Shown here: piece after piece, positions 30,213 to 38,200 of the stretch
How positions within the stretch are numbered: position 1 is the first letter of the stretch
Layout: each line of letters starts with the position of its first letter
Virus record (IMG/VR): IMGVR_UViG_3300028624_000009
Coordinates: 5,329 to 69,328 of that record
DNA from: a virus
Taxonomy: Duplodnaviria; Caudoviricetes
DNA length: 64,000 nucleotides
Strand: one strand, 5' to 3'
The notes under the pieces: generated by a model
What the model saw: the letters and a program-made list of their open reading frames with translations, nothing else
The model's database searches: none
Told to the model about the DNA's origin: nothing
Made by a program: the position numbers and the translations under genes

Positions 30213-31517
30213 ATGTCAACAGATAGACAACCATGTGATATTTGCATGCGCATGGCCATCAACGATGGAACAAGATGGCTGAAAGAAAACAGAGCTATTG
30301 CCACGGGAAAATCTTTCGAGGATGTTGAAAAGATATACCGTGCAAAGTACCCAAATTATACAGCATCTTTCAAAATAGCATGGGCTAACATGTTTGGAGA
30401 GGATCAATGTTGAATGACCTAGTAGTTGCCGATATCCTGGCCAACGGAACACCGAACCTGTATTTCGATGCGAGGGTATCAACCGCAGACCAGATAGTCC
30501 AATATTTGAGAGGACTTGTTGATCAGTTGTACATGCTATATTACGACGGATACATAAGCCATTTCTTCTGGGAGGGCTGCCATGAGAGATCCCTGTATTG
30601 CAGAGTGCCCTTTTTGCTACCTTGTCCGCCAGAAGCTTTTGTAGAGTATTGCAAACTGGTTGATGCGTTCATAAAATACCTCAACGACAATCTTGCGATG
30701 GCTATCCGATGTGAGATAGCTCTCGGAGTTTTGACTAAACATTATCGACTGACATATGAGGTCACGACAATCTCGAAGATGATAGTTGACGTATTTGCCA
30801 ACAATTGGTTCGAGGCCAGGTACGAATCACTTGATGCGGTTTTTTCGGATCACAATATGGTTAATTATGATTTGATTGCTGTTGATCTAGCTGAAGAAGA
30901 GTTCAGAAAAAGGTGCGATGCTTGTGCATGCGATCATATATGCTAGGAAATTGAACAGGCAGCCGCATGGCTCCGAGATCATGAGCAAGACATTGCTGGA
31001 AACTCTTTGAAAACGTTGAGCCAATGTACATAAGAGGGCATCCTGGTCATTTTCAACCATTCATGATGGCCTGGTGCGCTAAGAATGGAGGAATTTGATG
31101 AATAACTACTGGTCTATGGGCCTTCCTTCTGGTAAGGTCCCTCAATTTGATTTTCCGATGCTGAAGATGAGCATGACGAATTTGCAAAGCAGTACTGACC
31201 AAAAGACTGTGGATGGGGGGCAGATCATCGGCAACTCCATCATAGCTGGAGACTACAGTGAGAATAGGGAATTGCCGAGTTATATGGAGCACCTTGTGGG
31301 CAAGATTGGGGTATGCACGCGGCCTAAAACCCATCTTGTCTGTGGGCAAGAACGCAGGGTACGGGGCAGTGGAACCTGGATCATAAACATGGTCGTTTGC
31401 GGTCGAGACAGGGTTCGCAAGGGGTTTTCCGAGCCCATGGTAAGTCCGTTTATGCAGGACTTCTTTGCCATTAAGGAACCTAAATACGACGATGAGGAGA
31501 TGACTTTTAAACTATGA
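30213..31517 (+). CDS. Hypothetical proteins (30213-30413, 30407-30946, 31095-31517)
   Basis: Co-oriented ORFs with GGTGA/GGAGG sites. Confidence 0.5.
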
Positions 31518-31644
31518 GTGCGTCGGGCCTGGTTATGTGCATATGCTGCAAAACTATGAAATCTGCGATTCATGCGTTGGTTGTTAGAAGCCGCAACGGT
31601 AGGTTGTGGATTGGTCGAGACATGGCTTATTATGAGTTGACGTA

Positions 31645-32124
31645 TTGCCCGTTTTGTGGAAAGGAGGTTGGGGTATGAATTGGAAAGAGCGTGCTATTAG
31701 ACAAATCTTTTTCGAGTGTAAGAGATGTGGGACATGTTGCCAGGAACCGAAAATTGTTGACATATATCCCAGGGATGCGCTTAGAATTGCAAGAAGGTTT
31801 AGGATTTCGATGAGACTTGCGGCTAAACGTCATTTCATGAGACATCCAAATGATGATGAGAGGTTGACGTTGCGGAATGTGGCTCCATGTGAGTTTTATC
31901 AAAATGGATGTCGGATATATCGGAGTAGACCTTTGATTTGTAGGATGTATCCTTATTTGGCCGGGCCGACGATTTATTGTGAGACACCAACGGGCGAATT
32001 GCCGGAAATGGATGACCAGGACGTGATTATTAAGTTGGCAAAGGTGACTAACCTGCGCATACTTGAGCTTGAGGATTATCTGAGGTATATTGGGGCATGG
32101 AAGGATGGGAGGTTCACGTCGTGA
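31645..32124 (+). CDS. YkgJ-family Cys-cluster (Zn/Fe-chelating) protein
   Basis: FECKRCGTCC...PCEF...CRIY.SRPLICRMYP. Confidence 0.9.
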   Translation: MPVLWKGGWGMNWKERAIRQIFFECKRCGTCCQEPKIVDIYPRDALRIARRFRISMRLAAKRHFMRHPNDDERLTLRNVAPCEFYQNGCRIYRSRPLICRMYPYLAGPTIYCETPTGELPEMDDQDVIIKLAKVTNLRILELEDYLRYIGAWKDGRFTS

Positions 32125-32400
32125 TTTCCGAGGTGATTAATGGGGTTCTTGTGTTTGGACCTGATGATATGACAGAGGAAGAGTATCTGGCTTGGAGAAA
32201 GAAGAAGGTTGCCGAGACTGATTTGTATTGGGAGGAGTTGAGGATGAAGTATAGAAATGGTGGCAACGAACGTCGAATAATGAACAAAGTGCGCGACTGG
32301 TTGCGATTTGTGAGAAATCGATTACGGTGGATATGATGTCAACTGATATTTATTTTTCAAAATCGATAACTGTGAAAATTTTTGAAATTTTTCGAAAATA

Positions 32401-32640
32401 ATTCAATTTTCTATTATAGAGAGGAGATAGGATAGATATAGAGTAAAGATAAGGATAAGATAATAGATGAGAGTAAGAGATAGATAAGTAAGATAGGTAG
32501 TTGGATATAGTAGATAGATAGTGTTAAGATAGTGGCTGGTAAGATAGTGATGAGATATATGGTATAGGTTATAGGTATTAGGTTATATAAGTGCGGTTAG
32601 TGGTTTTGTTAGGTAGGTCTAAGTGATCCTGATATTAAGT
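32401..32640 (+). repeat. Low-complexity GATA(G/A)-rich, almost C-free tract
   Basis: Repeated gatag/gataa/ggtat units. Confidence 0.8.
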
Positions 32641-32690
32641 CTGTTTCCAACCTGCAACCTATCTACCAACTAACTACTCCCTCCCCTCAA

Positions 32691-32729
32691 TCCCCTCCGC
32701 CGGAGGGGAAGGGCGCGCTAATGCGCGCC
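32691..32729. other. Two adjacent perfect GC-rich hairpins
   Basis: TCCCCTCC-GCC-GGAGGGGA and GGCGCGC-TAAT-GCGCGCC. Confidence 0.85.
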
Positions 32730-33724
32730 TATTCGTCGCCCTCTCTCTGCTATTGTCTGTCCTTGTCTCTTGCTGTCTCTTGTTTATTATCTTCTGGAAT
32801 CTATCTCTCTTGCTGGTCTTGAAAATCTCTTATTACTACTCTCTGTCTCCTGCTGTCTGCTCCTGTGGCCCAATGCCCAAAAATGTACATCAATGCCTGG
32901 TCTTGTCTAAAGATACCGCCGTGGGGTCATCAATGTACAAAATCGATCACTAGTGATAAGCTAGGTGTCATATGACCTTGATATGGGCGAACTGCTGGAT
33001 ATTGGGTCCGGGCCAGGCCTGGCGGAATGTGGGTCTTCAGCCATGTCCAGATATGTCCATCAGGCTGCACATATAACCCAAGACGGCTAGATATGTACAT
33101 TGGTGAGTCAATAGTTCCGTAGGCGGGTTGAGGCGTTTCTAGGGTTATATTACTGCCAACGCCAAAATGTACATATTCGTACATCAATGCACATCTCCGG
33201 GTCCCAATGCATATCTTCAAGCACCATTGCCAACCTCCCGCCGCCAATGTCCATTTCTGTGCACTGGGGTTCGGCCCCTCCCCTTGTCGCTTTATATCAG
33301 GATCGGTCCTATAATAGTAAATTGAATTAATTTAATTTTATCAATTTTCGTTTCATTTCTTTTATTTTTATTTAATTTCGAACATATCACATATACTCCA
33401 CATATAACCCATATATCGCTATCAGTAGCCACCATTGACCGCATATATCCCATATAATCGATAACAGGCAGCAATATCTCCCCTATATATAGATATACGC
33501 GTGCGTACATGATATATACAGCCGCCGGTTGCCGATTTTCCCGCCTTTCGTCGCCACCCCGCCACATCAAACCGATATCAAGCGACATTATCGCGGAAAT
33601 CGACCGCTCCAACCACCCCTCCCAATGTACAAATATGTACATCAACGTACAAGATATCACCATATCGATCACAGTAGGGCATAGTTGTTCAGCAAGCTTT
33701 ATATCCTCAAGGCCTAAGATAGGT

Positions 33725-34675
33725 ATTGTGCGAAGGCGAATAACCAAACACCGGAGCACAAAACCAAAATCCCAAATAGAGCAGGCAGGCCAAAACCGGC
33801 GATCTCTCCGAATTCCGGGGAAATGAGATCTTCATTGCTGGGCGGTTTGGGGTTAGTCAAAATCAATATCACAATGTATAGGCTCAATGAACTCAAATAG
33901 GCATCAATCGAGGTGATTCAGAGCAATTTCCAGGCAGGGAATACGGAGCAGGCATTTGATGGCAAACCTACTCCCGATTTTCTCAGAAGTCCCGAAAAGC
34001 CAAAAGCAATCAATCCACGTTAATCGATGGTTAGCCGTCCTAATCGCAAATCGGTCTCAATTCCGTAGATTAGGCTTAATATCAGGTTGAAGACTTGATA
34101 AACGGCATTGGCTCCACCTAAAAGCCAGAAGTTCAAAGATCAGGCCAGCCCTTCAGAGTCAGCCGGAGCAATGGATCAGTCCAGAGTGACGAGCCGAGAG
34201 AGGAAAAAATGATCACGGTTTGCTATCCCCTAGCAAATGCCGACGAAAAAGATAACCTCTCGCCTAACCGACTGACCAAACTCTGATACGGCTCAACTGA
34301 TCGATTCCGGGAATTTGACTGGCCCGGATGCGGCGGCTAGTGTAAACCAGAATTAGAGACGCCATCTCACCAAAATTCTGGTTGAACCATAGGGTAGCCG
34401 CCAAAGGCCAAAAATGCCCTTACTTCCGATCTAGCCCATATGCCCAAATAGCCGACAGCGAAAGGGCCTGATATGGGCAACGCACAGACAACGACGATGA
34501 GCCTTGTGTCTAGGGGAGACTCAGGGCTCCGGCAAAATGCAGCAGTGCAGGTTTGATTCCGGTTCGATTCCGGACACTGCTATTGGCGGGATTGCTGAAC
34601 TCCCTTCACAACCCGTCAACAGTGGGCGACACTTTTTCCATTGGCCTCCTAACCTTTGGGTGCGTCCACTGACCC
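33725..34675 (+). ncRNA. Candidate large structured non-coding RNA (boundaries approximate)
   Basis: No credible ORF; many nested helices; TTTATA box at ~33698; tRNA-like element near the 3' end. Confidence 0.55.
34541..34582 (+). ncRNA. tRNA-like minihelix (acceptor stem plus T-arm, no D or anticodon arm)
   Basis: AGCAGTG/CACTGCT 7-bp stem; TCCGG-TTCGATT-CCGGA T-arm; discriminator A. Confidence 0.65.
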
Positions 34676-34741
34676 CTAATTACCCTGATGAGTTAACCGA
34701 GTGTGATTTTCTCCAGGAAAGTAATAAAGGAGTGATACCAA

Positions 34742-35158
34742 ATGAGCAAAATAAGCATACTTAGAAAAAAGGTAGTTGAAACTGTCGAAAAAATAGATGA
34801 TGAGGCCATCTTAACCTCAATGCTTGTATTTGCGAGCACCGCGACTCAGACCCCCATCCAGACACAGCCCAAGACCAAAAAAGCGAGAACCCCCAAACCC
34901 ACCGCCGAAAAGACAAGCAGCAAATTGCTGATCGTCCGCTACGAACACAAGGGCAAAGCAATGATTGCGGTTCAGACCGTAGGCGGCAAGCCTGATGAGG
35001 CCATTCTCACCAAACTCAGGGCCTTCAAAGAGGCCAAGAAGCTCAGATTCTACGTAAACGCACCTCAAAACCCGCTTCCAGGAAACAACCCATTCTGGGC
35101 CGGACCCTATGATGAGGCCATAGTTGAAGCATTTCCCAGTGCGAAGGTTGTGGCCTAA
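34742..35158 (+). CDS. Basic hypothetical protein, first gene of the early-type cluster
   Basis: Strong GGAGTGA site; Lys/Thr/Pro linker. Confidence 0.75.
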   Translation: MSKISILRKKVVETVEKIDDEAILTSMLVFASTATQTPIQTQPKTKKARTPKPTAEKTSSKLLIVRYEHKGKAMIAVQTVGGKPDEAILTKLRAFKEAKKLRFYVNAPQNPLPGNNPFWAGPYDEAIVEAFPSAKVVA

Positions 35159-35283
35159 ATGACCACAACCACCTGCGACGGAATCACCTATTACGAAGAA
35201 TCGGGAGAGCTGATAGGCATCTCCGTGGAGGCAGAGGCATGAAGCAGATTGGTGCACGCAAAGCGTGTTAAGAACCGAGGCGA

Positions 35284-38200
35284 TTGCTGATGAAAGTAAA
35301 AGACATCCCAGGAGATGCGATGTTCATCTCGGACAGCCAAGACGTATCCCAAATTCTGGCCGATTTTGGAATTGTTGATGACGATATCGGAGCCATCTTT
35401 ATAACCCGAGACGGCACAATTTACGGAATTTCCGGCAATATCCCATACCTTGAAAAGCAAGTCTTTAGGCTTGGCCAGGACATAAATTATGCGGCGGATG
35501 ATTGAAATGTTAAGCACAGATGTAAAGGCTAATTACCTAAAGAATGGTGGTAATCGTTGCATATACTGCGATTCTGAAGAAATTTGGTCGGAGCATATAC
35601 GCCATGATGACGAGCTGTGGACTCTCACTCACTGCGAGCGTTGTGAAAAACTTTGGAAAGACCTTTATAAATTATCAGGAGTTGAAGAATACCATGCCGA
35701 CGAAGAAGAATAAACCCCACTATATCGCCATGAGTGGGTCTCATGGATGTCTCCCGGATCATCTGGCGTGCTTCAAAAAATATTCCGAAGCAGTCCGGGA
35801 TCTGATAGACGTTTTTCAATTACCCCGTGATGGGGTAAAAGCCACGGAATTGCGGAAATGCGGTTATGTTGAGCTGGATGAAGCGGACTGGCCGGGGAGA
35901 AATGAACATCGTTATGGGGCCGAGTACGCTGAAATTCAAAAGTGTAATTGCGATCATCCAAAGATTCATGATGAGGATTTTCAGGAGGGTTGATAATGCA
36001 AAAGAGATTGTGGCACTTCAGGATGCCAGGAATGGGCCTTTACTGTAATGATCTTGTATTTGATAAGCCAGTCTCAGAAAGACAAGCAAGAGCAGAATTA
36101 AGATTGAGAGACGGATACAAGCGACTTCCAAACGACACAGAATTTTGGTGAGGTCAAGGAGGTGGTGAGAGATGACAACCTGGGTTGAAATAAGTTCAGT
36201 TGTTGATGGAATGGTGATGGTAGAAGAGATCGATGAAGAGGTCGAGGAGATGGCCTGAGATGACCTGCAAACACCTAGATACTCTACCATGCGGGGATAG
36301 CCAGAGCATGAGCAGATGCCATCTCCATCCGGAGCTAGGCAGGTTCCAGACCTGGAGTAATTGCCAGGTCGACCGGGGTGGATGCGATGATTACGAGGAG
36401 GTGGCCTGAGATGGTCAGATTGTCTGGTATATGGTGGTTGGAATGGGAAGGATTTTGATTGAAAATGGCAAAATAACTCCAGCCTGCAAGGCTTTCAAAC
36501 CTAAAGGCGACGGCATAACAACTTGTGTTTGTTGTGGCAGGAAACTGACTCATCCCGAATCCGTTAAAGATGGGATGGGTCCGATTTGCTCTGGAAAAGC
36601 ACGTAGATATGGAGGTTATCATGAAACAAATTGTAAAGATTGATGAAGTCCTGGTTGACCAGATCATAAATGAGATGATCAGTATATTGGATAGTGATTA
36701 TTGCTCAGTAAATCGCAATAAAGTTGTATCTGCTGAACTGAGAATAACATCGGAATATCTTTCGCTGATACTGAACCTAACTGACGGTCTGATTGTAACA
36801 GTTGAAGAGATAACATATGAGCCAGATACATGGGATATTACAAGCTGGGCAGAGCCGGTTTTGACTAAGTTTGTTGAAGCATCAATCGACAACATAAAGG
36901 AGGAACAACGATATGAAAAATACTGAAACAATCGAAGAGACCAACGCACAGCCAACAACCAAAATCGTCTACAGGGATATCAAAAATCCAGGAACTGCCG
37001 CCGTATTAAGCAAAGGAACCGTGCCGTACCTGGAGAAGATTGCCGATTATCTAGGAATTTTAGGAGAATAAAATGACAAATATGTTAATAAGGTTTATAG
37101 GGTTCCTTATTGCCCTTATTGGTGCAACTGGTACACTCATTGGGGCGATTGGTGTTTTCGCAAGTGAAAATGGCCTAGAGGTACTATTCGCTGGCCTGAT
37201 ACTTGTAGTATCATTAATAAACCTGGGAATAGGATTAATCGCAGCAAAGAATTAGAGGAGATAAATATGGGCGAACTACCAATTATAGTAGAAGGAAATA
37301 TTGATGACTCTGATGAAGAATTGATTGCACAAGTTAACACATTGTTAAGTGATATTCTAGGAGAACCTGGAAGTCTAACAGTTGGCCGAATAACCAGAGT
37401 GACTGAAGAAATTCAAGATGGTGTTAAGGAACCTGGCTTTGTATGCGTATGGATTGATTGAAATAAGAATCAGGTGATAAAAAATGCCATACTTCGTAAA
37501 TTGCCAACATCAGTTCTATTCTGGTAGATATATAGTGGAAATAGCATATCCAGGAATCGATTACGCCGGTTCGGATATGCTCGCCACGGATTATCCAGGT
37601 GAAGGAGAATACGACGACCCAAGAGAAGCCTTGGACGCAGCGATCAAGGTCAGAGAGGCATTGCAGGCCGATCACCCCGATGAGGAAATAGGGATTGCGT
37701 TTGGCCATTTTGACATGGTAGAGGGCGAACCTCAAGATATTGATGAACTGAGAAAGGATATCGAGAAGCACTACGAATCATTGCCAAAATGTGATCACTG
37801 TGGCAAACCGAGAGATGACAAAGAGTTTTTCGTAATCTACGGAGATCCTGATTACGGAAAATTCTGTTCGGAATCTTGCGCAGAAGAAGCATTTATTGAG
37901 AATGAAGAACAAACGGAGGAATGAAACAATAGCCGCTAAGGTATTATCCCGACGAAAACTCAAAAAACTTCGAAAACTGGGCAATTGAGTTGGGATATGA
38001 TATTGATTCAAGAAGAGCTGAGACAATATATCACAATGTGAAAGCTGTGTCTTTGAACCTGAAAAATTTCTTGGGAAAAGAAGCTTACGAAACCTTGCTG
38101 AGGGAACCGGAGAGAATGTAAATGGTGATCGAAAAAGCGATACAACAACGCGATAAATGAGGTGGCGGCCATGGAAAAAGAGGCAAAATTGCGTATAGTT

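Follow-up and report, generated by a model that had tools for sequence, protein, structure and literature searches.

The stretch of viral DNA analyzed here (the window; 64,000 nt, bases 5329-69328 of the 69,328-bp virus record IMGVR_UViG_3300028624_000009, which has direct terminal repeats and is rated complete) contains a region at 32340-34741 without a long conserved open reading frame (ORF), directly upstream of a block of early genes on the + strand. Within this region lies an abundant structured RNA of ~750 nt (33737-34489, +), preceded by an archaeal-type TATA box (33698-33705, +) and followed by a spacer, a tRNA-like minihelix and two further hairpins before the first early gene (34742-35158, +). 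The RNA is untranslated, is encoded once per genome and stands at the head of the early gene block; a covariance model (R1) of its central domain found exactly one copy in each of five virus records. RNA-library contigs and covariation among relatives lead us to conclude, with high confidence, that this structured non-coding RNA is real, is expressed and represents a new family.

Expression was assessed in public RNA libraries. Part of 33300-35300 is contained in 20 public runs, five of which are recorded as activated sludge metatranscriptomes, and the contigs of four of these five (four coded studies, one year and habitat) were placed on 31500-37500. In all four runs, high word depth (40-220) was found only over the interval from 33737 or 33738 to 34416-34490, whereas early-gene contigs from 34736 onward had a word depth of 2-10. 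One contig, X9, covers 33737-34488 in a single piece with all 752 bases. Adapter letters stand directly after 34488 in X9 and after 34490 in X10, which hints that many inserts end there and that these positions mark an RNA terminus; the true 5′ end may lie up to ~10 nt further left. No RNA contigs were found over 32505-33710 or 34515-34715 in any of the four runs, which does not by itself show that transcripts are absent. An earlier interpretation made from the letters of this DNA (the sequence-only reading) had put forward a large RNA of ~0.9 kb; the large RNA stands, and its length is reduced to ~0.75 kb by the RNA-library contigs.

Relatives of the locus were collected through the 138-aa protein encoded directly downstream and through its alignment, yielding first three and then four IMG/VR loci and 17 metagenome loci; species genomes scanned with the protein alignment gave no loci. 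Ten distinct sequences span the whole region. Eight of them are mutually 84-97% identical and visibly mosaic, and the other two, L018 and L028, are divergent relatives ~76% identical to all others. A motif scan of species genomes contributed L030, a 2,375-base contig that matches the window (32931-34980) at 87% identity across 2,063 bases; although binned as Alphaproteobacteria, it is most likely a mis-binned viral contig and no clue to the host. Motif scans of IMG/VR with conserved blocks of the RNA returned the same three or four contigs and no further carriers, and a distant blastn search of a phage collection with 33700-34740 gave no match. Across the alignment of 33500-34741, blocks of the RNA alternate between two or three sequence types in varying combinations, a pattern that points to frequent recombination among co-occurring viruses.

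Folding energy, covariation and strand were then compared with controls. The 951-nt stretch at 33725-34675 folds better than its shuffles as the + strand (z −3.39, 0/20) and not appreciably so as the − strand (z −1.13, 3/20); with 100 dinucleotide shuffles of 33737-34489, the values are z −2.61 (1/100) and z −1.21 (11/100), respectively. The advantage is thus confined to the + strand and modest (z −2.6 to −3.4). Covariation gave a clearer signal. A first RNAalifold model of 10 sequences had 177 pairs, 42 of them compensatory, with 97.5% of cells paired, compared to 18.5 ± 2.7 compensatory pairs in shuffles (0/500) and 2-10 when partners were slid by 1-3 columns. The model was refined by confining it to the RNA seen in the libraries, forcing the covarying GAGAGG/CCTCTC helix and adding L030 (11 sequences). 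After refinement it comprises 165 pairs in 30 helices, with 98.2% of cells paired and 44 compensatory pairs against 20.2 ± 2.8 in shuffles (0/500) and 2-10 after sliding, figures to be read with the few, related sequences in mind, in which paired cells overcount events. At least one compensatory pair occurs in 17 of the 30 helices; the other 13 show no compensatory change and are hence unsupported. Hairpins 34081-99 and 34219-37 exist in four or five differing, fully paired versions among the relatives. Read as the + strand, 98.2% of cells pair, compared to 91.6% as the − strand, and there are 135 G.U cells, with six pairs that are G.U in every sequence. The G.U cells and the difference in pairing identify the + strand as the folded strand. 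Many unpaired stretches and A-rich junctions are invariant. On this alignment evidence, some 30 helices in six domains are kept by selection.

The region shows none of the marks of a protein-coding gene. Its open frames are not common to the relatives, and 33737-34489 contains no conserved ORF. Of 61 pairwise indels relative to the window, 58 have lengths not divisible by three, and substitutions fall evenly on the codon phases with no 3-base period. The original description of the stretch as ORF-free holds for conserved ORFs; mechanical ORFs at 33292-33759 (−) and 33509-33826 (+) overlap its 5′ edge only. Nor does the RNA belong to a catalogued family. Rfam 15 (4227 models, among them GOLLD, ROOL, OLE, HEARO, RNase P, signal recognition particle (SRP), transfer-messenger RNA (tmRNA), group I/II introns and small ribozymes) gave 0 matches at the gathering score over the whole 64-kb window. 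At E ≤ 10 on 32300-34800, three chance-level matches appeared (E 5.1-9.1; 14.7-19.5 bits versus gathering scores of 58-64), none of them on the + strand inside the RNA. No family was matched even at this permissive threshold, in agreement with the earlier remark that no RNase P, SRP or group I/II intron core motifs were seen. ARAGORN called 0 tRNA or tmRNA genes in the window.

The refined fold is arranged in six domains on the + strand. Domain 1 (33768-33854) is a long stem with nested hairpins (helices 1-5), in which helices 1, 4 and 5 carry 5, 1 and 3 compensatory pairs and helices 2 and 3 none. A long-range helix predicted by RNAalifold (helix 6; 33876-83/34416-23) would enclose the central domains over 33876-34423; it is invariant in the 11 sequences, so that covariation speaks neither for it nor against it. 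Domain 2 (33910-34032) comprises hairpins 33910-30, 33937-84 (inner stem 33945-74) and 33998-34032, with 1 and 3 compensatory pairs in helices 8 and 9 and one-sided variation or none in helices 7 and 10. Domain 3 (34034-34127) is built from a three-way junction (34034-34106) and a hairpin (34109-27); helices 12, 14 and 15 have 2, 5 and 1 compensatory pairs, and its hairpin 34081-99 occurs in five different paired versions. The most conserved core is domain 4 (34138-34302), a multi-helix junction closed by 34138-43/34297-302, in which 15 of 43 pairs are compensatory and 98.6% of cells are paired, compared to 7.4 ± 1.6 compensatory pairs in shuffles (0/500). It is followed, over 34303-34402, by hairpin 34303-31 with an invariant UUGACU loop and by domain 5 (34332-34402) with an invariant inner hairpin; in this part helices 24, 25 and 26 have 2, 3 and 4 compensatory pairs and helix 27 is invariant. 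The UUGACU loop (34314-34320) is unchanged in the 11 sequences, is present also in the distant relative L022 and is a candidate tertiary contact; no covarying partner for it was found. Domain 6 (34434-34478) is a terminal hairpin, with 2 and 1 compensatory pairs in helices 28 and 29, and leads into a ~10-nt tail that runs to the RNA end. Two further pairings were considered and rejected: a terminal closing helix (33726-32/34481-87), which pairs in the window and not in relatives, and an RNAalifold helix (33751-57/34524-30), which is 87% paired without compensation and has its 3′ strand outside the library-seen RNA.

The central domain is also kept in L022, whose homologue of the 138-aa protein is only 51% identical. 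The alignment profile matches L022 (nhmmer E 1.6e-6), as does covariance model R1, built from 34131-34306 (21.2 bits, E 2.4e-4). In an alignment fitted to the model, 20 of 26 aligned pairs in L022 are standard, and in 9 both partners differ from those in the window. Its inner hairpins are replaced by others with a similar layout.

The complementary strings from which the sequence-only reading had assembled its structure, 22 in all, are present where it had placed them, and the 11 helices drawn from them were tested on the 10 sequences. Compensatory change supports five of the helices and substitutions contradict two. The supported helices, with their compensatory pairs, are GAGAGG/CCTCTC (3 of 6), TTTGCTA/TAGCAAA (6 of 7, after realignment), GGCGGCTA/TAGCCGCC (3 of 8), AACCAGAATT/AATTCTGGTT (4 of 10, with 80% of cells paired) and GCCCATAT/ATATGGGC (2 of 8). 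The two helices broken by substitutions are CCGGA/TCCGG (80% paired) and GAGCCG/CGGCTC (75% paired). The proposed GATCAGT (34174)/ACTGATC helix has mismatches and no compensation, the partner of CTGATC being GATCAG at 34138, and 34158-66 pairs with 34268-76 (four compensatory pairs) rather than with 34306-20. AGTCA/TGACT hardly varies among the 10 sequences and is uninformative; CAGAGT/ACTCTG, the pair on which a pseudoknot had been proposed, is equally unvarying and gives that pseudoknot no support. The suggested long-range pair 34162/34526 is 91% paired with one compensatory change, but its 3′ strand lies outside the library-seen RNA. With several individual helices thus revised, the core of that reading, that an archaeal virus encodes a large structured RNA of a new class, is supported by the folding, the covariation, the RNA libraries and the lack of an Rfam match.

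The TATA box had been noticed as TTTATA near 33698 and is indeed present at 33698-33703. All 10 sequences retain its TTATAT core, and the box lies 32-40 bases 5′ of the first RNA-contig base, with a predicted start near 33728-33737. From its position and conservation, we infer that it is the RNA's own promoter. No sigma-70-like site was found in 33500-34900. At the other end, neither a U-tract nor an intrinsic terminator was found near 34489, so the 3′ end of the RNA is probably made by processing. Upstream of the promoter and outside the RNA is a tight cluster of TGTACA-type repeats (33622-33661, no strand assigned; repeat families D1, D3 and D6 with palindrome I19), near-identical in nine of 10 aligned sequences and partly kept in L028; from its arrangement, it may be an operator to which a viral regulator binds. 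The non-coding 32872-33661 carries at least seven scattered copies of a AATGTACA-like motif with a palindromic TGTACA core. Further upstream, 32400-32640 is a GATA-rich, nearly C-free tract, which gives way to a pyrimidine-rich tract (to 32860), and imperfect inverted repeats I2 and I15 connect the two.

Several elements separate the RNA from the early genes on the + strand. The spacer (34490-34540), recognized by alignment and fold, contains a hairpin (34499-34529) and is still homologous in L018 and L028; no RNA contig over it was seen in the four runs, which proves nothing alone. Next is a tRNA-like minihelix (34541-34583) with a 7-bp acceptor-like stem and a 5-bp T-arm with a TTCGATT loop. 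It has an acceptor arm and a T arm only and is not called as a tRNA by ARAGORN. Eight of 10 aligned sequences carry it in near-invariant form; L018 and L028 have another segment in its place, and L019 lacks it. The two hairpins that follow (34584-34619 and 34621-34672; the loop of the latter includes a T5 run) are invariant in seven of eight carriers, and the changes in L015 keep the pairing through G.U; they too are replaced in L018 and L028 and missing in L019. The sequence-only reading had counted the minihelix region and these two hairpins as parts of the RNA; the hairpins exist, but no RNA contig covers them or the minihelix.

Taken together, 34499-34718 (hairpin, minihelix and two hairpins) is near-invariant in eight sequences, whereas the adjoining RNA varies by up to 16%. 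L018 and L028 have in its place, upstream of the 138-aa gene, an unrelated and shorter segment that contains two different hairpins and a TATA-like run, and in L019 (100-135) the segment is missing and the RNA gene abuts the early gene. Judged from these alignments, the stretch 34499-34718, which separates the RNA gene from the early genes, behaves like a cassette that can be exchanged. A conserved block beginning CCCCTAATTACCCTGA (34673-34692, +) recurs with little change in all 10 sequences and is a candidate weak promoter element. A candidate hammerhead at CUGAUGAG (34688), in which the spacing of helix II and GAAA is unfit and which has no Rfam match, was rejected. Bulge-helix-bulge splicing at the L019 junction is not supported: no complementarity was seen there, and the RNA contigs have no joint.

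The first early gene (34742-35158, +) encodes the 138-aa protein and always lies directly downstream of the RNA. The protein has 29 homologues of 59-99% identity, none of them named, and no Pfam family. The best fold matches of its C-terminal domain (residues 59-138) are of the eIF1/SUI1 type, all below significance (Foldseek best E 0.013; VIA-align Z 6.1, 5.2, 5.1, 4.8 and 4.7); if real, this likeness would place a ribosome- or RNA-binding fold beside the RNA gene. Early-gene RNA contigs start at 34736 in three runs and at 34739 in one, and the metagenome contig L009 starts at ~34734. These starts (34734-34739) fall 3-8 bases before the start codon, past a Shine-Dalgarno-like GGAG. The shared start at 34736-34739 could be a processing site, the start of a very short leader or an assembly effect.

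Elsewhere in the window are genes for a family B DNA polymerase, for a primase-polymerase, for a helicase and for a tail-like protein, together with one for an MC1 homologue (Pfam E 2e-19). MC1 is an archaeal chromatin protein that occurs in haloarchaea and in methanogens of the Methanosarcina/Methanothrix type. The MC1 homologue and the conserved TATA box support an archaeal host, in keeping with the earlier assignment to an archaeal virus, and the host of this 69-kb double-stranded DNA virus is probably a methanogenic or related archaeon.

From these observations, a course of events can be proposed. The RNA would be transcribed from its own archaeal TATA promoter at 33698, and its 3′ end would be produced by cutting or by trimming back to ~10 nt past the last hairpin. 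The mature RNA may then act in trans as a folded particle, a scaffold, decoy or self-assembling body to which components of the host or the virus bind, as has been proposed for GOLLD and ROOL, and not as a leader, antisense RNA or primer. This trans-acting particle is favored because six domains with invariant A-rich junctions are kept and because word depth is far above that of the neighbors. The statement as a whole, a stable folded non-coding RNA gene (~33730-34489, +) with its own promoter and an action in trans, we consider somewhat more probable than its negation.

Several points weigh against it. Action in trans is proposed by analogy. The RNA evidence consists of assembled contigs, which cannot prove start, end, strand or level, and the four RNA-library runs are possibly one campaign. 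The 12 sequences all represent a single narrow group of viruses, and eight of them are 84-97% alike and mosaic, so the compensatory events are fewer than the cells. Folding energy alone is modestly better than in shuffles (1/100). The segment 34490-34535 is conserved in the divergent relatives though outside the library-seen RNA, and L019 leaves no room for a separate early-gene promoter, which favors co-transcription.

Co-transcription is the basis of the main rival, according to which the RNA is the processed 5′ part of an early-operon transcript from the 33698 promoter. The folded part would be cut off and persist longer than the mRNA, and would hence be a by-product or a cis leader and not a separate gene. 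The organization of the locus lends itself to this account. There is no convincing TATA box in 34490-34741, the RNA gene of L019, without 34499-34718, directly precedes the early gene, the intervening minihelix resembles a processing signal, and the early-gene starts at 34736-34739 in four of four runs and at ~34734 in L009 fit a cut site. No RNA contig bridges 34490-34735 in the four runs and word depth differs 10- to 100-fold, both weak objections, as contigs cannot show absence and the depths are contig-based. A TATA-like TTATAT run right after the RNA in L018 and L028 points to a promoter of the early genes' own, and a selected fold of 165 pairs exceeds the usual needs of a leader. We give the processed leader a minor but real chance; the product could act in trans even under this biogenesis.

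Two other readings, one linked to replication and one to catalysis, appear very unlikely to us. RNA II is a comparable replication RNA of ColE1 plasmids, and the present RNA might similarly be a replication-linked transcript, a pre-primer or an origin-activating RNA, made beside the repeat-rich 32340-33700; the 1.4 kb of DNA adjoining it is non-coding and contains repeats and AT-rich runs, and the RNA has a defined 3′ end without a terminator. However, transcription points away from the repeats, a primase-polymerase and a family B polymerase are encoded by the virus itself, and a primer could do without six covarying domains. A large ribozyme or self-processing RNA, intron-like or RNase-P-like and perhaps acting on the tRNA-like element, would account for the size, the many invariant unpaired stretches, the A-rich junctions and the adjacent tRNA-like helix, yet at E ≤ 10 the RNA matches no ribozyme model, whether group I, group II, RNase P, hammerhead or another, the RNA contigs have no joints or skipped segments, and no catalytic core motif was recognized. 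Chance complementarity or a DNA-level element such as a packaging or recombination site, which the modest folding energy and the failure of several proposed helices might recommend, is close to refuted by compensatory changes far above both controls, by G.U pairs that mark one strand and by an RNA at high library word depth next to genes at low depth.

The RNA was compared with known systems, of which the closest in kind is that of GOLLD and ROOL, large ornate phage RNAs; the present RNA is a member of neither. GOLLD and ROOL are described in bioRxiv 10.1101/2024.12.08.627333 as phage and prophage RNAs of hundreds to >800 nt that often lie beside tRNA genes and form cages, with tRNAs sometimes inside the GOLLD linker. 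Like them, the present RNA is virus-encoded, hundreds of nucleotides long and multi-domain, with many conserved junctions and no known protein partner or function. A tRNA-like helix lies ~50 nt downstream of it. In contrast, neither Rfam model matches at E ≤ 10, the host domain is Archaea here and Bacteria there, and the neighbor is a minihelix, not a tRNA, that is lacking in two of 10 relatives.

The eukaryotic MALAT1/mascRNA pair is a long RNA followed by a tRNA-like element that takes part in 3′-end formation. Here, too, a long stable RNA precedes an acceptor/T-arm helix that is predicted to be recognizable by RNase P and RNase Z. The two differ in that the contigs end at 34488-34490, ~50 nt before the minihelix (34541) instead of at its 5′ edge, a gap that later trimming could explain and that contigs cannot settle, and in that two relatives have the same RNA without the element; no small RNA was seen. 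We know of no MALAT1/mascRNA-like arrangement outside eukaryotes. Structured 5′ leaders and leader-derived RNAs resemble the present RNA in lying on the same strand directly upstream of an operon. Unlike them, it stops ~250 nt short of the start codon and greatly surpasses the operon in word depth; known leaders are also much smaller and simpler.

Large structured RNAs that do not code for protein are uncommon, and several turned out to be ribozymes or assemblies of RNA alone. To our knowledge, no large structured non-coding RNA has been described for an archaeal virus, and a literature search at the level of listings returned no description of such an RNA for any archaeal virus. A bolder proposal, which we regard as doubtful, is that this is the first ornate RNA machine of archaeal viruses: an RNA-only particle (cage or scaffold) or a catalyst made in bulk early, with its 3′ end set by a tRNA-like signal in most lineages, and one instance of a general habit of archaeal viruses of placing a large folded RNA at the head of a gene block. 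Independently of that proposal, the RNA gene, with a putative promoter, approximate ends, a covariation-backed fold, natural variants and presence in environmental RNA, is ready for in vitro and structural work, and it provides a marker for a poorly known virus group of methane-producing digesters.

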